Part shown: piece after piece, positions 5,321 through 62,769 of the stretch
How the letters are laid out: each line of letters begins with the position of its first letter
How positions within the stretch are numbered: position 1 is the first letter of the stretch
IMG/VR virus record: IMGVR_UViG_3300011242_000003
Location: 1 to 64,000 of that record
From: a virus
Taxonomy: Duplodnaviria; Caudoviricetes
Length of the DNA stretch: 64,000 nucleotides
Strand: one strand, 5' to 3'
Position numbers and translations under genes: made by a program
The notes under the pieces: model-generated
What the model saw: the letters and a program-made list of their open reading frames with translations, nothing else
Database searches by the model: none
Told to the model about the DNA's origin: nothing

Positions 5321-6094
5321 TTAAAGTCTTGAAGTAATATTATTACTATTTATTCTTATATCTGCATCAGAGTCTTTGTATAACTCTTTTACAATTGGTT
5401 CAACATATTTTACATCTGGAAGTTTTTGTGCAACCGTTTTAAATAATGTGATTGCCTCGTAGTTTGCAACTTGTGTAAGTCTATAATAATCTGAATACAA
5501 TTGTAATATATTTTGATTCTTGATAACGTCATAAGATTTGCCCGTACCACAAGATACAATAGTCATAATTTCCCCTATATCTACGACATGAGAATCTTTC
5601 ATTTTAGCTATTTTAGCCTTTTCTATCCACTTTGCTTGATATGGGTCATCATAAATTTTAGGTTCTTGTAATAAATTTTGATTTAATATAATTTTTCTAA
5701 AGGTATCAAAATTATTTTTATCTATGACCGTTGTTATTTTATCATCTACGAATACTAATTCATCAATATCCTTTATTTTAATGTCTTTTCTAGTGACCAT
5801 ACTAAATAACATTTCTAACTCTGATATACACTTATAATATTCATCAGTTTGTTTGTTGCTTTCTATAGACATAATATTTAAAAGGAGCAATCCTTCTAAT
5901 AGGCTAATATCTGATTGTAAATCTAAATGTTTTTTTGTGAACACTATATATTTAATATATTTTGAAAACTTCATATAATCCTTAACTTTTATAGGATATA
6001 TATAACCTAGATTATCTAAATAGCAAGGCTCATCCATCATAACTTCATCTGTGGTATATTCCTCTTTAGTTATAGGATTTTTATAAATAATCAT
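5321..6094 (-). CDS. Phage tail-module protein, possible chaperone
   Basis: Position; translationally coupled to the upstream gene. Confidence 0.45.
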   Translation of the reverse strand: MIIYKNPITKEEYTTDEVMMDEPCYLDNLGYIYPIKVKDYMKFSKYIKYIVFTKKHLDLQSDISLLEGLLLLNIMSIESNKQTDEYYKCISELEMLFSMVTRKDIKIKDIDELVFVDDKITTVIDKNNFDTFRKIILNQNLLQEPKIYDDPYQAKWIEKAKIAKMKDSHVVDIGEIMTIVSCGTGKSYDVIKNQNILQLYSDYYRLTQVANYEAITLFKTVAQKLPDVKYVEPIVKELYKDSDADIRINSNNITSRL

Positions 6095-6712
6095 TTATCT
6101 ATACCTCATATTACACAATCTAGTAGTGATAAAAACAGGGTAGTATAAATACGCTGTGGTTTTACTAAGTCTTTCTAAAGTTGACCTACCACTAACTTTT
6201 AGTTCTATAAGTCCTAAATCTTTAACATATTCATCGTCAATCACCATTCCATCAAACATATCTACAATCTCATTAACAATTAAGAATAACCTCTCATCAC
6301 TATAAGGGTCAATTTCATTATATTCATATGGGACTATTATATCTATTGCAAATACATTTTCACCCACAATATCATCATAATTATTTCTAAAAGGATGCAC
6401 AAATAAATAACATTGTTTACCCTCCACAATATTATCTTCAAACATATAAGGTATTAAGATTTGTTCATGACTATTACCTTCTGTGCTTGGTTTTATTAAA
6501 CTATCAACTAACAATGGTTGTTGTATCAAATTACCATCATAATCAAGTGATTTTTTAGAAAGTGGATTTTTGGTTTGATATCTACAAAGCCTCTTAATAT
6601 TTTGGTTTTCATCTATCTTTTTTACTATATAATTTTTGATAGGTACTATCTTTTTCGATTTTGTTCCTACAGTACCATCGTTTTTATTATTCCAATTACT
6701 CAAATCCACCAC
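6095..6712 (-). CDS. Putative tail terminator/completion protein
   Basis: Position after the head-closure genes; DIIVP...RLFLIVNEIVDMF pattern. Confidence 0.45.
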   Translation of the reverse strand: MVDLSNWNNKNDGTVGTKSKKIVPIKNYIVKKIDENQNIKRLCRYQTKNPLSKKSLDYDGNLIQQPLLVDSLIKPSTEGNSHEQILIPYMFEDNIVEGKQCYLFVHPFRNNYDDIVGENVFAIDIIVPYEYNEIDPYSDERLFLIVNEIVDMFDGMVIDDEYVKDLGLIELKVSGRSTLERLSKTTAYLYYPVFITTRLCNMRYR

Positions 6713-7627
6713 CTACTTTCTTATTATATTTACATATTTAGTTGCTATAGTTTTACCATTTTGCATTGCTGTAATAATCAATAATTCATCTGTTGTTCCT
6801 ATACCTTCAATAATGCAGTTATTATTAGATTGAGATATGATTTTACCAATTTCTAAATCATCAATCTCCCATGCAATGTCAATTCCCACAGGTTCAATAA
6901 TATATGTTTGTTGAGTACCTATTTTAATATTTTCAGCACCTATAATATTGTATTCTTTTGGAATATCTTGCACTGAATCATTATAAGCTATATTATTTAT
7001 TAGGTCATCCTCAGACATTTTTTCTGTTTTCTCCATCATGAATATAATTATTCCCTTATCAATAACAGATGTTTTATCTATAACCCTATATACGTTGTCC
7101 TCTGAATTATCAAATATAAACCTAGTACCATTTTTAATCTTTTTAGTTATATTATTTTTTTGTACTTGTATTTTAACTTTAGCATCTCTAAAAGCAAAGA
7201 ATTCATTACTTTCATTTAGCTTAACTCCATAAGAGTCATTAGTTGCAACACATGGTATAGGTTTGTCCCAACCTTTAAGGTTAATTGTTTGTATACATTG
7301 AAATGCCTTTGCATACGGCACAACGGAATTATCTTCAAATTCCAATACTAAATATGTTTTATTGGGATATACTATATAATCTCCCATACTACATACATTA
7401 TCAGGTAATATTTGAATACGTTTTTCTATTACCGTTCTATCAACATTAATTATCCTAGTGTCAATAGGTATTTCTGTTAAATCACTTTTTCTTAAAATGC
7501 CCATTTTATAAGAAGGGTCATCTTTAAAGTTAAGCATATATTCTCTTTTAGAATAAGAAAGTTCTTTTTCTGATTGGTTTGCTCCACCTATCTTTAATCT
7601 ACTTCTCATATCATCTAAATAACTCAT
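6713..7627 (-). CDS. Putative head closure protein with C-terminal Ig-like domain
   Basis: Synteny; C-terminal beta-rich segment IIGAENIKIG...W...ITA. Confidence 0.5.
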   Translation of the reverse strand: MSYLDDMRSRLKIGGANQSEKELSYSKREYMLNFKDDPSYKMGILRKSDLTEIPIDTRIINVDRTVIEKRIQILPDNVCSMGDYIVYPNKTYLVLEFEDNSVVPYAKAFQCIQTINLKGWDKPIPCVATNDSYGVKLNESNEFFAFRDAKVKIQVQKNNITKKIKNGTRFIFDNSEDNVYRVIDKTSVIDKGIIIFMMEKTEKMSEDDLINNIAYNDSVQDIPKEYNIIGAENIKIGTQQTYIIEPVGIDIAWEIDDLEIGKIISQSNNNCIIEGIGTTDELLIITAMQNGKTIATKYVNIIRK

Positions 7628-7632
7628 ACCAC

Positions 7633-8061
7633 TTACCTCTTATTCATGGATTGCATAAGTTTTCTATTTCCATATTCAGCCATAATTTTATCAACTTCAT
7701 TAGATTTATCTTTCTTGGTATTTAATATTTTATCTAATAAATTTGCTTTAGAATGATTTTGAAAATCTTTTGATGATAACCTATCTTGAAATCTTTCAAT
7801 ATTATTAACTTCTCTTGCCATCCAAAATAACACCATAAGTTCACTAAGTATGTCAATTTCATCATATGATAAATCTTCAGTAAATTCCTGCAACCCCTTA
7901 TTATAACTTGCTAATTTGTCACAAGCATAAAATCTGCTCATGGCATTTTTTAATAGTCTACCAAATTCATTTTTTAATTCCTCATTTGTACATTCTAAGT
8001 ATCTATAATCAGATAATTTCGATGAAAACGTCTCAAATATGTCATCAAAAGCTGTACTCAT
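7633..8061 (-). CDS. Putative head-tail adaptor
   Basis: Synteny two genes after the capsid gene; MSTAFDDIFETF...ILSELM..W pattern seen in SPbeta-like phages. Confidence 0.55.
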   Translation of the reverse strand: MSTAFDDIFETFSSKLSDYRYLECTNEELKNEFGRLLKNAMSRFYACDKLASYNKGLQEFTEDLSYDEIDILSELMVLFWMAREVNNIERFQDRLSSKDFQNHSKANLLDKILNTKKDKSNEVDKIMAEYGNRKLMQSMNKR

Positions 8062-11606: not shown

Positions 11607-11792
11607 CTAAAAAAACAACTTATTGGTTTTTTTAAATTTAATATTTTCTTTTTCAAAATTTAATTTATTATTATCTTCAAAAACGAATACATCTTTATTG
11701 CTAATTATATTTTTACAAATAAATCTATATCCATTTGACAACAATCTTTCTTTGTCTTCCTCATTAAATACCAATATAAACACATTATTCAC
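11607..11792 (-). CDS. Small hypothetical protein
   Basis: AGGTG RBS; the likely start is GTG at 11783. Confidence 0.6.
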   Translation of the reverse strand: MNNVFILVFNEEDKERLLSNGYRFICKNIISNKDVFVFEDNNKLNFEKENIKFKKTNKLFF

Positions 11793-13328
11793 CTACACTT
11801 TATTTTCATTAGAACTATCTCTTCTTGTTTGTTCCCCTGATTCTGTTAGTTCAGTATCATCTTTTTTTGGTCTTCCATTTTCAACTTGAGAACTGTCTTG
11901 TGTATGAGAACTTTGTAAAGGAATCATTCTTCCTATAAAATCATATAAATCTTCTAACATTAATGCACCTTCAACTTGGGATGGTGTAAGTCCAAATGTT
12001 GCAAATAATTCATTTAAAATAGGAATTCCATATTGAGCATTACTTAATAATCTTGATATATACTCATCTTTGTTAAAAGTATTAATTTTTGGAATCTTAA
12101 CCGCAAACACATTATCGAAAGTTCTTTTCATTTTGCTAGTCAGTATACATTCAATTTGATTATACAAACCATTAAGTTTGTTTTGGTCTACCACTGTTGA
12201 GAACTTCAAAGTTCCTGCATTTGTTGTACCATTACCAAACATGCTATCTGATACACCAGATGCGTTCCATGCAGATTTCTCAGCATTTGCCACTTGGTTT
12301 ATATCTGTTGCTTTACTAGAAAATTTAAGCTCTTGTACTGGTACTGGTGATATAAAAGGTGTAATTGTATTACCACAAACATTTGTTAAAAAATCATAAT
12401 ATTCTCCTACAAGGGCAGGGTCGACAGTAAATTTATTCATTCCATCATCTTTTGTGCTTGTTTGCATAATTAAAGCTATAAATCTATAGTTTTCCATTTC
12501 TGTCTTTACTTTGTTTAGAGATTTATAATCCATTATATCAATAAGGTCTGAAAACAAATTACAGTATGGTGGAAAATCAATACACGGTGAATTTAACTCA
12601 CTAAAATATCTTAAACACACTTGTTTTTCCATATCAATAACTTGCCACCTTAATTTTACATCTTTTTTATAGTTATTATATAATTTAGTAAACTCAGGAG
12701 GATAGGAATCTAGCAGAGTTTTATTGGTATCTTTGATTCTTTTCCCATTAAAAAAACTAAAGTCAAATTCATAAATCCAACAACCATCATTACTACCAAT
12801 AACTCTACAAAATTTTGGATTTAATTGCTTTATAGTATAAGAACTTTCATTCTCTATTTCATATCCATAAAAGACACCATCTCTTATTGTACTTGCTATA
12901 GCTTTCCTATATTCCATCTCTACGTTCATTTTCTCTAAGATATAAGCACATTCTGAATACTCTTCTTTCAATTTACTTTTTTTAGAATTTACTTTAGTAG
13001 GAAGTATATAAGGAGTTATCAATACCATATCACTAAAATATTTTACTAGGTTTTGATATTGAGGCACACTTATATACATAGCCAAAGATAAGTCTATTAA
13101 TTGCTTTACATATTTATCTGGGGACTCTAAATACATCTTTACAGTTTCAGTGTCTATATTCAATATTTTTGTTTTATCTTTTTCAACACCAAAATCATGT
13201 GCCATTTTATTTACACTTAAAGCATATCTATGAAAAACTTGTTCAAAATTTTGTTGTTGCAATGCTTTTTCAAGCTCTTGTTGAAGTTCTTCCTTGGTGT
13301 AAGTTTCTTTACTTTCATTATTTAGCAA
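11793..13328 (-). CDS. Portal protein (YonE-like)
   Basis: 511 aa directly after TerL; DGVFYGY and PLQSSHTQ...GRP motifs. Confidence 0.8.
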   Translation of the reverse strand: MLNNESKETYTKEELQQELEKALQQQNFEQVFHRYALSVNKMAHDFGVEKDKTKILNIDTETVKMYLESPDKYVKQLIDLSLAMYISVPQYQNLVKYFSDMVLITPYILPTKVNSKKSKLKEEYSECAYILEKMNVEMEYRKAIASTIRDGVFYGYEIENESSYTIKQLNPKFCRVIGSNDGCWIYEFDFSFFNGKRIKDTNKTLLDSYPPEFTKLYNNYKKDVKLRWQVIDMEKQVCLRYFSELNSPCIDFPPYCNLFSDLIDIMDYKSLNKVKTEMENYRFIALIMQTSTKDDGMNKFTVDPALVGEYYDFLTNVCGNTITPFISPVPVQELKFSSKATDINQVANAEKSAWNASGVSDSMFGNGTTNAGTLKFSTVVDQNKLNGLYNQIECILTSKMKRTFDNVFAVKIPKINTFNKDEYISRLLSNAQYGIPILNELFATFGLTPSQVEGALMLEDLYDFIGRMIPLQSSHTQDSSQVENGRPKKDDTELTESGEQTRRDSSNENKV

Positions 13329-13352
13329 ATTACCACCTCCTCATTTAATATT

Positions 13353-15089
13353 TTATCTTATTTTCTGTGGCTTAAATTTAAACAAACATGATAAATCTAT
13401 TTTTGTATCTTTTTTAGATTTGTTTTCAAAAGACATTATATAATAACACATATAACTTGTTGCACTATATCTATCCTTATCTAGTGTCTTTGAATTTCTT
13501 TCTACTGTAAGTTTCCCACCATTCAAAGTTTTTAACTGCAAATTAGCAACTTCCTCAATAAAAAAGTCTGTTTGGACTGCCGATAAATGCCCATTTGTCA
13601 TTATATCATTATTCCCTATCTCCATTTCATTTTGGTCTACCTTGTCTAATAGTTGGAGTTTTTTACTTTCCACTATATTGATAAAGTTAACAATAATATC
13701 TGTATTTATTCCCTGAGCATTTACAACAAATAAACATTTGTCAGTTTCTACTTCATCACTTTCATGGTCTGTATTCATAGTATCATAAGCTATTAATTCT
13801 TCTCCTGTTAACGGGTCGATGTGTGATTTTAATAATTCATCAACAAGTCCTACTCCTAACCCATTTCCGTCTAAGACTACAACCCTTGCTTTAAATATTA
13901 ACTTTAATCTTTTTATTATGATTGCTTGACCTGTAAAATTCATACCGTTCGGTAAATTAATCATATTTACTATTTGGATAAATTTAACTTTATTATTTTT
14001 ATCCCTTTTTACTTTTCCTATAACTATAGATGTTTGGTTGTTTGAAGTTTTTGTAGAACGTGCAACGTCAACACCTATATAATATTCTGATTTACCATCG
14101 CCTTTAATCTCTGCTTTCGGCAACACTCTCAAATTCATTAATAAGTTTACATCCACTAAACAATTGTCCGTACTACCTATCCACCTTGATTCATAGTTAG
14201 TTGCAAAGAAAATGGGAGATAATCTTTCTTTTTTAGCCAAAATTTGACTTCTAGTTTCTCCTCTTCCGTATTCACAAGCTAGTTGCCAATCAGAACCTAG
14301 AACGATTTTACCTTTTAAATCAGCCATTTCATCTAAAATTTTTAAATTTCTTTCATACTCTGTATTTTTAAAGTATGCCGTTGTCAAGAAATGCATCTGT
14401 CCATTTAATTCTTCTGGATTTATACAAGAATTCTTACCTATTGTTCTTCTTGGAATATTTGGTATAGGTTCTAATGCATCTTGGAACACCTCATCATTTA
14501 TTAATGCTGATTCTTCCATATTTAATCTATGTCTTCTTAAGCCTTTTGAAGATTGAGTATTTGCTAAGTTAGTTATAACTGCACCACTTGTAAATGTTAT
14601 TTCTATGGTATCTTTTGACATTATAGGTTTTTTAGCTATTTCATTTCCTATCATTGGATAGAATTTAATTATTTCTCTATGTTTTTCATGAAAGAATTTT
14701 GCACTCGCTTCTCTTGTCTGAGCAGACATTGATAAGGTTATATCAGGATATAGAATTGCTGTTATATACATACAAAGTATTTCAACCATTGTTTTACCAT
14801 ATCCTCTAGGGAAAACACCATAAACGGTTATAAACCTTCCCATAGCCCTCATAAAAACCCTTTGGTCTAAATCTAGTCGAATACCCCCTTCTTCAGGAGT
14901 TATTAAATCTAAAAACAAATCGTAATTCCATCTAGCCCATGCTAGAAAATCAACCCATTTATCCAAGTTACCAGAAAACCCATCTTCTTGCTTTTTACTC
15001 TTAGCTGAAACATTGCTACTGAATTCAGGATTATATATATCATAATTGTGTTCTGAACTTCTATCATTTATTTTGAAATTAACAGCCAC
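13353..15089 (-). CDS. terL: Terminase large subunit
   Basis: PRGYGKT Walker A, GLRR, MEES Walker B; nuclease motifs GVDVAR, LDGNGLG and KDRYSA. Confidence 0.92.
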   Translation of the reverse strand: MAVNFKINDRSSEHNYDIYNPEFSSNVSAKSKKQEDGFSGNLDKWVDFLAWARWNYDLFLDLITPEEGGIRLDLDQRVFMRAMGRFITVYGVFPRGYGKTMVEILCMYITAILYPDITLSMSAQTREASAKFFHEKHREIIKFYPMIGNEIAKKPIMSKDTIEITFTSGAVITNLANTQSSKGLRRHRLNMEESALINDEVFQDALEPIPNIPRRTIGKNSCINPEELNGQMHFLTTAYFKNTEYERNLKILDEMADLKGKIVLGSDWQLACEYGRGETRSQILAKKERLSPIFFATNYESRWIGSTDNCLVDVNLLMNLRVLPKAEIKGDGKSEYYIGVDVARSTKTSNNQTSIVIGKVKRDKNNKVKFIQIVNMINLPNGMNFTGQAIIIKRLKLIFKARVVVLDGNGLGVGLVDELLKSHIDPLTGEELIAYDTMNTDHESDEVETDKCLFVVNAQGINTDIIVNFINIVESKKLQLLDKVDQNEMEIGNNDIMTNGHLSAVQTDFFIEEVANLQLKTLNGGKLTVERNSKTLDKDRYSATSYMCYYIMSFENKSKKDTKIDLSCLFKFKPQKIR

Positions 15090-57376: not shown

Positions 57377-57691
57377 ATGGGGGAAGAGAAGTTTATAACA
57401 ACAGAAGAAGAAAATTTATTGGAATTAGAATTATTTCTGATTGAATGTTATGAGAATGGAGGGTTAAGTATTAGAGGGGAATGTGTTAATGCTGAAAACA
57501 ATATAGACTACATATTTGACATGGAATACAATATATATAATAGGAATAATAAAGATATAATATTAAAAATATATAATGACACACAAGTTTTTTATGTTGA
57601 GATAAAGAATTATATTAAAAATATAAAAAATACAGAAAATGGCTTGATAATTAACAGTGTTATTGGTAAAATAGAACTTGAGAGTATATAA
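57377..57691 (+). CDS. Hypothetical protein
   Basis: AAGGAG RBS, TTGATT-17-TATAAT promoter and downstream terminator. Confidence 0.6.
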   Translation: MGEEKFITTEEENLLELELFLIECYENGGLSIRGECVNAENNIDYIFDMEYNIYNRNNKDIILKIYNDTQVFYVEIKNYIKNIKNTENGLIINSVIGKIELESI

Positions 57692-59230: not shown

Positions 59231-60316
59231 ATGGAAAGACGTTTTGAAGTTCATAGTTTAGAGGATGAAGGTAGATTAAATAAAGAAGAATTAAGTAAAT
59301 TAGAAAATAGTTTCAAATCAGAAAGCATTTATATTGAAAATGAAGAATTTCTTAAATCTAAGGTTAAATACTTGTTTGATAACTACGACCATGAAAATAC
59401 GTTAGGTGTATATTGGAGAACATTTAAAAATTATATATTAACACCAGAGATTGACCTTGGTAAAAATATATATGAATTTACAAGCAATGAAGTAGAACAA
59501 ATGATGTTATCTATTCCTGCACCACGTAATGTAAAAAATACTATTTATAGATTAGCAAATTTATATATTGATTGGGCATTAAAAATAGAAAAACTAGCTA
59601 TGAGAACAAATCCGTTTGACCCATTTACGGCAGATGATTTATTAATAGTAAATAAAAAAGTTATTCAAAATGAATATATGAGTATGGATGATGTTTTCGA
59701 TATGGCTATTATTTCAGATAAAGAAGGAGTGCCATATCAGAAAATCATAGTATTTATACTAGGAAGATTGGGACTTTATGGCAAAGAAGGTTCATATTTA
59801 GCTGACCTAAGAAAAACTCATATAAATAGAGAAACTAACACTATATCAATAGTTGATGATATGACAGGTGAAATATTATCTCAAATTCCTGTTACAGATG
59901 AAAGAGTATATTATTGGTTAGAGTGTGCTGAGAATGAGACACAATACGATTATAGACCTTATATAACAGAAAATAATGTAGCAAGACGTGGAGCAGAGTT
60001 AGTATTCATAGAGTCTGATGGTAGAGTTTTAAAAAGCTATAATAAAAAATATGATAGAGTTCTCAAAGGTAATTTATATAATGCACTAAAAGAAATTTTT
60101 AGAATCAATGATAGAAAACTAATGGGATTTAAAAAACTTGTAAGATGTGCTAAGTTTGACCAATTAGATAAAAGGCTAAAAGACAACGGTAAATTGACCG
60201 TTACAGACGTTCAAGAAGTTCAGAGGATGTATGAGCCTACCTCAACCTATTCAAGCTATTACACGCTAAAACAGGACTATGAGAGTTATAACCCTAATAT
60301 TAAGATAGAGAAATAA
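59231..60316 (+). CDS. Catalytically degenerate tyrosine-recombinase-fold repressor resembling SPbeta YopR/MrpR (SroF)
   Basis: E..LGKNIYEFT..E and YIDWA...NPF motifs; GLYGKE replaces GxRxxE and there is no HxxR; paired with the YopQ-like gene. Confidence 0.65.
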   Translation: MERRFEVHSLEDEGRLNKEELSKLENSFKSESIYIENEEFLKSKVKYLFDNYDHENTLGVYWRTFKNYILTPEIDLGKNIYEFTSNEVEQMMLSIPAPRNVKNTIYRLANLYIDWALKIEKLAMRTNPFDPFTADDLLIVNKKVIQNEYMSMDDVFDMAIISDKEGVPYQKIIVFILGRLGLYGKEGSYLADLRKTHINRETNTISIVDDMTGEILSQIPVTDERVYYWLECAENETQYDYRPYITENNVARRGAELVFIESDGRVLKSYNKKYDRVLKGNLYNALKEIFRINDRKLMGFKKLVRCAKFDQLDKRLKDNGKLTVTDVQEVQRMYEPTSTYSSYYTLKQDYESYNPNIKIEK

Positions 60317-60362
60317 TCTCTATCTTTTTTATTTATTAAAAAAATATAAAATTAAGTGAATA

Positions 60363-60508
60363 AAAATATTAAATTGTGTTGACAATAGTAATAAGATACT
60401 ATATACTAATATTTGTGAGGCAGATATATCAAATATTCACAGTCAAACAAAATTAATTAAAATAAAATATTAAAAAGTATTGACTTAGCTGAATATATGG
60501 TATATACT
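60363..60508 (+). promoter_or_regulatory. Two tandem SigA promoters, each with an AAAATATTAAA box, upstream of the MazF-TPR-peptide operon
   Basis: TTGACA(60379)-17-TATACT and TTGACT(60480)-17-TATACT. Confidence 0.7.
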
Positions 60509-60546
60509 TGTAAATATAGTAAATAAATATTAAGGGGTTTTAGAAA

Positions 60547-61224
60547 ATGGTAAGAATGGATTTAGAAGAATTAAAGAAGTTAAAAAGGGGTATGGAAGAA
60601 GAAAGAAATAAACTTAGGGTAATAAGAACAATTAGAAGAGGAGATATTTATTGGTGTGATTTGGGAGATGCAAAATCTAAAGATGATAATGGAATAAAAG
60701 AAGAAGGAGAACAGGCAGGTAAAAGACCTTGTTTAATAGTACAAAACGATATCGGAAATAAATATAGTCCTACAGTAATTGTTATACCAATAAGTTCGAA
60801 AATAGAAAAATGTAAACAACCAACACATACACTAATTACTAAAGAGGATTGCCAAAGTCTTTATAAAGATAGTTATTTGGTGGGAGAACAAATTAATACT
60901 ATAACTAAAAACAAATTAGGCGACTACATAGGTCACGTAATGAATGATAAAATAATTAAAGCAATGAAGATAAGTTTAGGTTTACAAAGGATTACTACTG
61001 AAAAAGAAGATGTTTTAATAAATAAAGTTAAACATTTAAAAGAGCTTGAAATAATGATTTCAATGATGTTAGATAAATCAAATAATATTATAACTGATTT
61101 TATTAAACAGTTTGTAGATGATAGACATAATTTACTACTTGATATTAAAGAATATTGTAATAGAAACAATATGAATTTACATTACTATTATAAAAAAGAA
61201 GAATACATTAAGATAGCAATATAA
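60547..61224 (+). CDS. MazF/PemK-family endoribonuclease with N- and C-terminal helical extensions
   Basis: RRGDIYWCDL...EQAGKRPCLIVQNDIGNKYSPTVIVIPISS...EQINTITK.KL..YIG; no MazE gene is adjacent. Confidence 0.88.
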   Translation: MVRMDLEELKKLKRGMEEERNKLRVIRTIRRGDIYWCDLGDAKSKDDNGIKEEGEQAGKRPCLIVQNDIGNKYSPTVIVIPISSKIEKCKQPTHTLITKEDCQSLYKDSYLVGEQINTITKNKLGDYIGHVMNDKIIKAMKISLGLQRITTEKEDVLINKVKHLKELEIMISMMLDKSNNIITDFIKQFVDDRHNLLLDIKEYCNRNNMNLHYYYKKEEYIKIAI

Positions 61225-61254
61225 TATTTAAGAGTGTAGATGGGGGAGTAAAAA

Positions 61255-61851
61255 ATGTTAAACATTGATAATGATAGAATAAGTGTATGCACTTGCTTTG
61301 GGGACGGTGAATATGAAAAAGGACGAAAGAAATTATTTGTAATGTATAATACAAAGCTAAAAAAAATAAATAATATTGAAGATATAAGATTTATAATTCA
61401 CAATCTTGCATGGGTTGAATATTATTTAAAAAATATAGAAAGTGCTAGAAAATATTCAACTCAAATAAAAAATATATTTGAAGAAAATGATGCTTATATT
61501 AAAAATTATCCTAGTGAATATTGTAAAATATTAGATTTATACAATATTTCGCATACAGGTATAATTTCTATGGATGAAAAAATAAATCTATATAAGGAAA
61601 CATATGCCATTTACTGTAAAACGGGTTCACCAGACAGATATATGGCACTACATAATATTTATGACTTAAAAAAAGAATATTACAAAATACCTAATCTTTT
61701 AAAGGAAATGCTTTCAAATATAGGAGAACATCAAAATTTTGTATCAGAGTTTTTAAAAGATTTAGAAGAAAATGACAAGCAATCTTACGAAGAATCCCTA
61801 TTAATAATAGAGGAGTTTAAATTGAGCAATGCTTCTATAACTAGTTTATAG
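61255..61851 (+). CDS. TPR-like all-helical protein, putative peptide receptor (no HTH)
   Basis: HNLAWVEYYLKNIESARKY TPR-like repeat and a second ALHNIY helix; lies directly upstream of the pre-peptide. Confidence 0.55.
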   Translation: MLNIDNDRISVCTCFGDGEYEKGRKKLFVMYNTKLKKINNIEDIRFIIHNLAWVEYYLKNIESARKYSTQIKNIFEENDAYIKNYPSEYCKILDLYNISHTGIISMDEKINLYKETYAIYCKTGSPDRYMALHNIYDLKKEYYKIPNLLKEMLSNIGEHQNFVSEFLKDLEENDKQSYEESLLIIEEFKLSNASITSL

Positions 61852-61888
61852 AAGATTGACTATAGATATACTAAAGGAGGAAATTAAC

Positions 61889-62077
61889 ATGAAAAAAACA
61901 ACAAAGAAAACAATTTTAATTTTAGGAGGTATGGCATTAGTATTATCATTAATCATTATGCCAATGGCAAAAGGTGAAGGACAAGGTAGTTGGGGTATGG
62001 AGGATTATAGACCATTTGGCACAGGAGAAGGTCAGGGAAGTTGGGGTATGGAATTGCCAACATATTTTAACCGTTAA
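61889..62077 (+). CDS. Secreted signalling pre-peptide, 62 aa, with two copies of GEGQGSWGME
   Basis: AAGGAGG RBS; basic n-region plus hydrophobic h-region; repeats at 61973-62002 and 62024-62053. Confidence 0.8.
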   Translation: MKKTTKKTILILGGMALVLSLIIMPMAKGEGQGSWGMEDYRPFGTGEGQGSWGMELPTYFNR

Positions 62078-62105
62078 GTAAAAGAACATAGACATAATAT
62101 TTACT

Positions 62106-62133
62106 AGAGTAGGAGTCAAAGCCTACTCTTTTT
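62106..62133 (+). terminator. Rho-independent terminator closing the MazF-TPR-peptide operon
   Basis: AGAGTAGG...CCTACTCT followed by a T tract. Confidence 0.7.
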
Positions 62134-62163: not shown

Positions 62164-62769
62164 ATGGGAAGAATAAAAGATAATATAATTATTATATATG
62201 ATAATTATGCGGAGATGGTAGTAGAAAGCAAAGGAAACATATATAAAGCGTTAATAGACAAAGAAGACATAAAAAGAGTAGATAAATATAAGTGGTGGTT
62301 GTCATGCAATGGTTATTTAATGACGGATACATATGATGGTGACTATAAAAACAGATATACCATTCACAGATACATATTAAACGTTGATGATAGAGAGATT
62401 CTAGTAGACCATATTAATAGAAATAGATTAGATAATAGAAAATGCAACTTAAGAAAAACAACACCTACTGGAAATAGCATCAATAGGTCAGTACAGAGTA
62501 ATAATAAATCAGGAATAATAGGTGTATCATGGAGTAGAAAACTTAATAAATGGGAGGTTAGAATTAAACTTCATGGAAAGAAGAAATTTATAGGATACAC
62601 TAAAGATTTAGAAGAAGCAACAAGAATGAGATTACAAGCTGAACTAGATATATTTGGAGAAGAGTATGCACCACAAAGACATTTATTTGATAAATATAAT
62701 ATACATACAAGAAATTCAGAAAAATATGATTTAAAATACGAAGATGAATTTAATGAACAAATCAAGTAA
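62164..62769 (+). CDS. HNH homing endonuclease with AP2-like domain
   Basis: VDHINRNRLDNRKCNLR; NKSGIIGVSW...KW...IG....EEA...RL.AE. Confidence 0.88.
   Translation: MGRIKDNIIIIYDNYAEMVVESKGNIYKALIDKEDIKRVDKYKWWLSCNGYLMTDTYDGDYKNRYTIHRYILNVDDREILVDHINRNRLDNRKCNLRKTTPTGNSINRSVQSNNKSGIIGVSWSRKLNKWEVRIKLHGKKKFIGYTKDLEEATRMRLQAELDIFGEEYAPQRHLFDKYNIHTRNSEKYDLKYEDEFNEQIK

Follow-up and report, generated by a model that had tools for sequence, protein, structure and literature searches.

A phage-borne long MazF, a stand-alone TPR-like protein and a two-copy pre-peptide form a candidate communication cassette in a large SPbeta-like phage

The stretch analysed here (the window) comprises positions 1 to 64,000 of the IMG/VR record IMGVR_UViG_3300011242_000003, a 146.8-kb virus sequence of 27% G+C that CheckV rates as 79% complete. 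Its source is a large SPbeta-like phage of AT-rich (Clostridium-type) Firmicutes. Between positions 60379 and 62129, a single transcription unit encodes three proteins: a long MazF-type protein (MazF-long), a stand-alone protein with a tetratricopeptide-repeat (TPR) fold, and a pre-peptide. We read this cassette as a switch in which a peptide gates the phage's own MazF and drives infection to lysogeny at high phage density, and we assign this reading a probability of roughly 0.45. The genes, their folds, their synteny, their behaviour as a cassette, the diversification of the peptides and the avoidance of MazF sites in the adjoining repressor genes have direct support. In broader terms, the cassette is tentatively described as phage peptide communication of a known general kind, with a quorum-gated toxin as a possible new mechanism. 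Among peptide signalling systems between phages, arbitrium, known from Bacillus phages, is to our knowledge the only one that is well understood, and the cassette suggests that large clostridial-type phages have solved the same signalling problem with different parts. A literature search found no paper describing it.

The 198-amino-acid (aa) middle protein has no match in Pfam, PHROG, NCBIfam or PADLOC, and no Pfam TPR model matches it at E<0.1. Its AlphaFold2 (AF2) model, built on an alignment of eight sequences, is all-helical, with 10-11 helices and a predicted local distance difference test score (pLDDT) of 91.8, and about five TPR repeats fill the whole chain. This leaves no room for a helix-turn-helix (HTH) domain or a Rap-type N-terminal bundle, and no HTH family was matched. 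Foldseek comparison with the PDB returns TPR domains only, namely those of kinesin light chain (KLC), LGN, MamA, RapI and the pLS20 Rap, with TMq 0.70 for both RapI and the KLC TPR domain. An aligner independent of Foldseek gives Z 14.1 to the KLC2 TPR domain with a bound Trp-acidic peptide, Z 13.6 to PlcR-PapR, and Z 12.0 both to RapH-Spo0F and to the Rap of phage phi105 with its peptide, values that for helical repeats indicate fold and not kinship. The ESM Atlas yields the same fold assignment, and the family profile matches no solved receptor in the PDB by sequence. As modelled, the middle protein has a TPR fold resembling the peptide-binding domains of Rap and PlcR. Within its close subfamily, conservation falls from 80% in the N-terminal 57 residues to 51% in the last 58, a gradient that would fit one constant face and one specificity face. 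No other TPR_12 protein was found in the phage record. Separately, a 2103-aa protein (P0009) matches residues 103-140 of the TPR family profile in 34 repeated stretches (E=1.7e-27) and is probably a large repeat protein made of a similar helix pair.

MazF-long consists of an N-terminal helix, a PemK/MazF domain and a C-terminal tail. Residues 30-137 match Pfam PemK_toxin (PF02452, E=7e-24), phrog_35650 matches the protein across its full length, and Foldseek places it at 40-44% identity to the solved MazF proteins of S. aureus and B. subtilis. Aligned to S. aureus MazF, it keeps the Arg of the GxRP motif, and Ser takes the place of the catalytic Thr. The MazE family (PF04014) was not found in the 146.8-kb record, which is 79% complete, and no open reading frame (ORF) lies between the promoters and mazF. 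With its catalytic Arg and Ser/Thr positions kept and no MazE, the phage MazF looks active, as far as its sequence can tell. The tail (residues 146-225) is modelled as two helices, 152-177 and 184-206, with pLDDT 85-93. It occurs solely on PemK proteins, and its residues C204, N207, Y214 and Y215 are invariant in eight systems. Compared with solved structures, the tail gives only weak, chance-level HipA matches, and MazE is not among them. An atlas search with MazF-long found no MazF-TPR fusions.

Three claims of the initial annotation, which had been made from the sequence alone, are borne out by these data. The first is one transcription unit with three ORFs running from tandem promoters to a terminator; the promoters, called from consensus matches alone, fit at 11/12 and 10/12 positions, and the terminator hairpin has z -2.6. 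The second is a PemK/MazF protein with a helical C-terminal tail of about 80 aa and no MazE, which agrees with the Pfam match, the AF2 hairpin and the lack of PF04014. The third is an HTH-less, TPR-like middle protein, and the structural comparison that the annotation proposed gives a TPR fold with no DNA-binding domain.

Close relatives of the TPR-like protein form seven clusters at 60-84% identity in a collection of 5.8 billion proteins. A profile search of 1.84 billion representatives widens the family to about 60 clusters, nearly all of them stand-alone proteins of 160-230 aa, with no stretch conserved across the whole family well enough for a pattern search. Close relatives were not found in INPHARED/GenBank phages, PLSDB plasmids, GTDB species genomes or IMG/VR, with one exception (contig L027; relatives are cited below by such contig numbers), and a scan of JGI metagenomes recovered L001 and L002 again and nothing else. 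On contigs that reach far enough around the TPR gene, the gene order is a divergent XRE gene, a small gene, a yopQ-like gene, an mrpR-like gene, MazF-long (199-258 aa), the TPR gene and a short ORF. In 12 of 13 informative clusters, which span 25-84% identity, 20-35 nucleotides (nt) separate MazF-long from the TPR gene that follows it. A short ORF with the shape of a signal-peptide precursor or a short hydrophobic peptide (SHP) follows 35-80 nt downstream, and 11 of 12 informative systems have a peptide ORF 3' of the TPR gene. This synteny persists down to 25% TPR identity, and the contigs concerned are about 100-270 kb long and encode YopX and Bro/ANT as well. The trio is kept in every informative relative but one, a degree of conservation that exceeds chance.

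Comparison of L019 with L021 shows how the cassette moves. Their TPR proteins and peptides are 100% identical and their MazF-long proteins 93%, against 26% for the MrpR-like proteins and 27% for the downstream genes; therefore, the cassette recombines between phages as a block. Such block-wise recombination argues for a partner of the TPR protein within the cassette, MazF-long or the peptide, and against the repressor. Across systems, the MazF core remains 40-57% identical, and the tail and the TPR protein each drop to 21-36%.

The pre-peptide has a K-rich N-terminus followed by a hydrophobic core and a PMA-K site, features judged by eye. Its ORF begins 37 nt past the TPR stop codon, and small ORFs likewise lie 3' of the TPR gene in relatives. 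The GEGQGSWGME motif occurs at 61973-62002 and again at 62024-62053, and the two copies differ by five synonymous and no non-synonymous changes. The window, L001 and L009 share the core GEGQGSWGM in two copies. Other systems carry GEGKP(S/G)WGT (L008 and L006), EDGKPGWGME (L005), GDGLPEWGMT (L004), GKQSWG twice with the second copy at the C-terminus (L014) or KDAWGY (L019), and the peptides of L022 and L027 end in TSPRG and SIGRG. Beside two distant TPR members, L013 (789-845) and L016 (1960-2022) encode leaderless, hydrophobic SHP-like peptides of 18 aa and 20 aa with the C-termini GGWG and EMWG. The core is thus xWG in the window's clade and xRG in the sister clade (L022, L027).

TPR clades and peptide types coincide. 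TPR proteins at 71% identity or more have GEGQGSWGM in common, and more distant clades carry other cores. Three independent precursors terminate exactly after WG, which is hard to obtain by chance at 27% G+C. This diversification resembles the behaviour of a receptor-pheromone pair with pherotypes, and shared ancestry contributes to the pattern. The receptor-peptide co-variation for which the initial annotation had proposed to search is therefore present, since receptor clades match peptide types, and the position that it gave, directly after YopQ/YopR-like lysogeny genes, is confirmed by phrog_5732 and PF22822 and conserved in relatives. Two of its points stand in part. The duplicated motif of the proposed signal-peptide ORF is real and its N-terminus is signal-peptide-like by eye, with the start moved to ATG 61889 (62 aa); an earlier start at TTG 61856 was rejected. 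Three-gene synteny is kept to 25% identity and is not obligate, as c-st, L066, L067, L072, L016 and L017/L018 show.

The Trp in most of these peptides raises the possibility that the peptide acts directly on MazF-long, in the manner of extracellular death factor (EDF), with the TPR protein as a chaperone or processing factor. EDF peptides (NNWNN in E. coli) are reported to bind and enhance MazF, with an essential central Trp (PMC3668371, PMC4742708). The conserved Trp found here is compatible with such an action, which is nevertheless very improbable: the sister-clade peptides end in RG and have no Trp, and the peptide type follows the TPR clade while the MazF core is mosaic. Moreover, peptides in Firmicutes are usually received by TPR grooves.

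The repressor genes beside the cassette supply a further line of evidence. B. subtilis MazF cuts UACAU (Park 2011, as cited in PMC10769878), and U^ACAUA specificity is conserved among Bacillota MazFs, including those of Listeria and S. aureus (bioRxiv 10.64898/2026.08.06.743204). The motif UACAU/UACAUA was fixed beforehand, and seven divergent systems were compared with synonymous-codon shuffles as the null. Their yopQ/mrpR-like genes contain no UACAUA in 16.9 kb, compared with a shuffle mean of 7.3 (P=0.002) and about 17 predicted from genome density. UACAU occurs 7 times versus 19.2 in shuffles (P<0.001), and is the most depleted of 30 same-composition permutations and second in depletion among 338 frequent pentamers. 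UACAUA is present above shuffles in the cassette genes (16 in 9.9 kb) and in the genes downstream of the cassette (17 in 13.4 kb). In the window, the yopQ-like gene has no UACAUA and one UACAU, and the mrpR-like gene has neither motif; three further repressor pairs, from L020, L021 and phage c-st, also have no UACAUA.

A similar pattern is seen in phi3T, whose yopP/Q/R homologues have no UACAUA in 3.4 kb versus 1.0 per kb locally. This fits a published account in which MazF degrades most phage mRNAs but leaves the sro operon intact (bioRxiv 10.1101/2025.11.27.690993). That repressor genes contain no UACAUA suggests that their message alone escapes degradation by MazF, a site-avoidance logic that bears on how MazF promotes lysogeny in phi3T. 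Elsewhere in the window's phage, two minus-strand gene blocks (5321-8061 and 11607-15089) are free of sense-strand UACAU, which may reflect either chance or the protection of additional transcripts from MazF.

In phi3T, arbitrium acts via the host MazF, and active MazF favours lysogeny (PMC10769878; bioRxiv 10.1101/2023.04.27.537455). MazF-long is best read as a phage-encoded counterpart of the host MazF that arbitrium phages recruit as their effector. In the proposed mechanism, the operon would be transcribed early in infection from strong phage promoters. The pro-peptide would be secreted and cut, here giving two copies per precursor, and would accumulate with the number of infections before being re-imported. 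The apo TPR protein, taking the role that AimR and AimX have in phi3T, would restrain MazF-long through protein contact, most likely via the tail. Peptide bound in the TPR groove would free MazF-long, and free MazF would cleave phage and host mRNAs at UACAUA-type sites. Repressor expression would survive because the yopQ/mrpR-like genes carry no UACAUA, leading to lysogeny.

In its most specific form, this proposal has phage density read post-translationally as selective mRNA decay, with a TPR-only receptor acting as the peptide-switchable antitoxin of the phage MazF, a site-free repressor operon that is spared, and no transcription factor doing the sensing; that form we consider possible rather than probable. 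The idea that the peptide competes with the C-terminus of MazF-long for the TPR groove was set aside as speculation, no sequence similarity between them being seen. If the proposal is true, the cassette is a compact three-gene, peptide-controlled RNase switch, and a second, mechanistically distinct phage communication system that is portable between phages with unrelated repressors. Its receptor family, wired directly to a phage-borne RNase, would fall outside the length and HMM criteria of current detectors. It would also supply new pherotype families with which the social behaviour of phages could be read in anaerobic communities.

Several observations weigh against the peptide-gated MazF. 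We infer TPR-MazF binding, peptide binding, maturation, import, cleavage specificity and switch direction, and the direction (peptide activating or inhibiting) is the least certain step. That this MazF has UACAUA specificity is an assumption drawn from relatives at 40-44% identity, and its beta1-beta2 loop carries a 9-aa insertion. In the window's own genome, a lack of sites does not single out the repressor block (rank 11, p=0.04). The sro operon of phi3T, taken as a positive control, is not depleted in UACAU (8 in 3963 nt), and there the strict 6-mer UACAUA alone fits avoidance. Selection by the MazF of the host could explain site avoidance equally well. The catalytic Arg appears, by sequence, to be lost from MazF-long of the L019 clade, and the tail and TPR protein are not strictly co-inherited, since L005 is 85% identical to the window in the tail and 62% in the TPR protein. 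L016 has the TPR gene and peptide without MazF, with a divergent HTH gene upstream instead, and the lineage L017/L018 (TPR P0014) has no convincing peptide ORF. To these are added the long MazFs of c-st, L066, L067 and L072 with other neighbours, described below.

Two of these exceptions can be described further. In L019, L020 and L021, DLTP plus a 6-aa insertion replaces GxRP in MazF-long; the L019-clade cassette is nonetheless conserved and widespread (27 contigs; L019:4336-4965). In L017:5597-5752 and L018:2479-2601, no convincing peptide ORF accompanies the MazF-long and TPR genes, and this lineage may have an orphan receptor or a peptide encoded elsewhere.

Long MazFs also occur without this TPR family. 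Clostridium phage c-st (NC_007581 22935-27129) encodes one, the 220-aa CST027, next to the yopQ/yopR homologues CST029 and CST030. The tail of CST027 is unrelated to that of the window's protein, and the gene is followed by a strong hairpin and the unrelated 218-aa CST028, which was rejected as a member of the TPR family (hhalign 0.7%); neither a TPR-family member nor a peptide ORF was found at this locus. Among the best 80 MazF loci in IMG/VR, only three have a C-terminal extension of at least 85 aa (L066, L067 and L072), and these are exactly the ones beside yopQ/mrpR-like genes. In the spans examined (L066:4992-6166, L067:4992-6161, L072:4932-6240), the ORF immediately after MazF-long, of about 180-200 aa, is helical and belongs to other families. 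The L066 partner was rejected as a TPR-family member (hhalign 0.2%), and the L072 partner stands at 23.8% against the family. In L066 and L067, mazF is also preceded by a membrane-like ORF of 53 aa. Taken together, c-st and the three IMG/VR phages point to a general theme of a long MazF by an SPbeta-type repressor with an adjacent partner protein, in which the TPR and peptide pair is one exchangeable partner type.

These loci bear on where the TPR protein acts. It may form a true pair with the peptide and have a target other than MazF-long, through MrpR/YopQ-like antirepression or a host factor; the pair would then work as AimX does on AimC, and MazF-long would be regulated alone, for example by tail self-inhibition. 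Such an arrangement would accommodate L016, with a TPR protein and SHP-like peptide and no MazF, as well as MazF-long without this TPR in c-st, L066, L067 and L072. It is also in line with the position of the cassette next to mrpR and with small antirepressors mediating most arbitrium systems (bioRxiv 10.1101/2025.11.23.689978). We judge it unlikely, given that identical TPR and peptide stand beside MrpR-like proteins of only 26% identity and MazF-long proteins of 93%, that the 20-35-nt MazF-TPR spacing persists to 25% identity, and that the tail and the TPR protein diverge in step.

Alternatively, MazF-long and the TPR protein may be a plain toxin-antitoxin pair with the gene order reversed, the TPR protein being a new antitoxin and the small ORF an unrelated membrane or exported peptide. 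The pair would help to maintain a prophage or phage-plasmid, or to defend against other phages. An apparently active MazF without MazE is what such a pair would show, and the helical ORFs of other families after MazF-long in L066, L067 and L072, like the lack of a peptide ORF in L017 and L018, agree with it. The peptides make this explanation quite improbable: an ORF for them, with a conserved, clade-specific core, lies 3' of the TPR gene in 11 of 12 informative systems, the three independent precursors ending in WG include two SHP-like ones (18 and 20 aa), and the duplicated copy in the window is maintained by synonymous-only change. The TPR fold is of the peptide-binding type, and no PADLOC defence model matches.

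The proposed peptide-gated MazF cassette would work like arbitrium and Rap-Phr and belongs to neither, and it is not a canonical MazEF pair. It shares with arbitrium of SPbeta and phi3T a temperate SPbeta-type phage in which yopQ/yopR-type (sroE/sroF) repressor genes adjoin the module. Its candidate intracellular receptor of the TPR type is likewise followed by a pro-peptide, which is Sec-type in arbitrium and signal-peptide-like by eye here. The xRG ends of the sister-clade peptides are reminiscent of AimP. As in phi3T, a MazF RNase is the lysogeny-favouring effector (PMC10769878), in this case as a proposal, and the repressor genes are UACAUA-free in both. Unlike AimR, which has about 380 aa, the receptor has 198 aa, no HTH and no sequence similarity to any solved receptor. 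There is no antitermination target and no aimX, as a terminator directly follows the peptide gene and is succeeded by an HNH endonuclease and an IS605-type TnpB. The MazF is phage-encoded and tailed instead of host-encoded, the module sits past yopR, at the far end of the operon and not ahead of it, and control is proposed to be post-translational.

Rap-Phr systems, such as those of phi105, phi3T and pLS20, also combine an HTH-less TPR receptor with a peptide encoded just downstream, and Rap acts by protein contact and is switched by that peptide after its import. However, Rap proteins have about 350-380 aa, carry a target-binding N-terminal three-helix bundle that is absent here, and show no sequence homology to the TPR-like protein; the candidate target here is a toxin RNase and not Spo0F or ComA. 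Two mature-like copies per precursor recall RRNPP systems with tandem-duplicated propeptides (PMC11343458), and the leaderless hydrophobic peptides of 18-20 aa in L013 and L016 recall Rgg-SHP. The RRNPP_detector signature comprises a receptor of 250-500 aa (validated 285-473), a TPR HMM match and a propeptide of 10-100 aa (PMC10075063). The 62-aa propeptide ORF directly beside the receptor gene resembles this signature, whereas the 198-aa TPR-like protein (family 160-230) is below the receptor length range, matches no Pfam TPR HMM, reveals its TPR fold at the structure level alone and carries no effector part such as an HTH or Rap bundle.

MazEF pairs (B. subtilis EndoA/EndoAI and S. aureus) have a toxin core 40-44% identical to that of MazF-long, with the catalytic positions kept. 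In contrast to them, the cassette has no MazE, its toxin gene comes first and encodes an extra 80-aa tail, and the candidate inhibitor is a 198-aa TPR protein. In c-st, CST027 (phrog_35650, a MazF-like growth inhibitor) is likewise a long MazF by UACAUA-free yopQ/yopR homologues in a large clostridial phage. It differs in its unrelated tail, in a next gene outside the TPR family and in having no peptide ORF.

Table 1. Features of the cassette and of the repressor genes upstream, in window coordinates (AF2, AlphaFold2; dG, folding free energy).
Feature	Position	Strand	Evidence or remark
yopQ/sroE-like gene, 488 aa	57748..59214	+	phrog_5732 E=4e-32; half of repressor pair
mrpR/yopR/sroF-like repressor gene, 361 aa	59231..60316	+	PF22822 MrpR_N_CB E=2.6e-8; phrog_5830
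Terminator of mrpR-like gene	60302-60326	+	Terminator scan
Two AAAATATTAAA boxes	60363-60373, 60464-60474	+	Each directly upstream of a -35 hexamer
Predicted promoter 1, sigma-70-type	60379-60407	+	TTGACA-17-TATACT, 11/12 consensus match
Predicted promoter 2, sigma-70-type	60480-60508	+	TTGACT-17-TATACT, 10/12 consensus match
MazF-long, 225 aa	60547..61224	+	Pfam PemK_toxin; PHROG; Foldseek
PemK/MazF domain of MazF-long	60634-60957	+	Pfam
80-aa C-terminal tail of MazF-long	60982..61221	+	AF2 helical hairpin plus disordered, conserved C-terminus
Stand-alone TPR-like protein, 198 aa, candidate receptor and MazF regulator	61255..61851	+	AF2, Foldseek
Pre-peptide, 62 aa, two GEGQGSWGME copies	61889..62077	+	ORF reading; homologous small ORFs in relatives
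Terminator hairpin	62106-62129	+	8-bp stem and U run; dG -11.3 kcal/mol, z -2.6

The limits of the transcription unit follow from its flanks (Table 1). A separate terminator ends the mrpR-like gene; therefore, the cassette is its own unit. Each of the three ORFs has a good ribosome-binding site (AAGGGG, GGGGGAG and AAGGAGG). The T tail of the hairpin that closes the unit is shorter than the rule of the terminator scanner requires. The 11-mer AAAATATTAAA found at both promoters occurs 41 times in the window, against 2.4 copies expected, and is always oriented with local transcription. It often lies just 5' of a -35 hexamer (example sites 4349, 45792, 60363 and 60464), and may act as an UP element or correspond to SPBRE, the operator to which MrpR binds in SPbeta.

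Downstream of the cassette, every relative has different genes, a mark of a recombination hot spot. In the window, an HNH homing-type endonuclease (phrog_99, 62164-62769) comes first, followed by an IS605-family OrfB/TnpB (62863-64086). On the other side of the locus, a 104-aa ORF (57377-57691) lies between the XRE gene and the yopQ-like gene and, unlike the repressor genes next in line, carries UACAUA at 57509.

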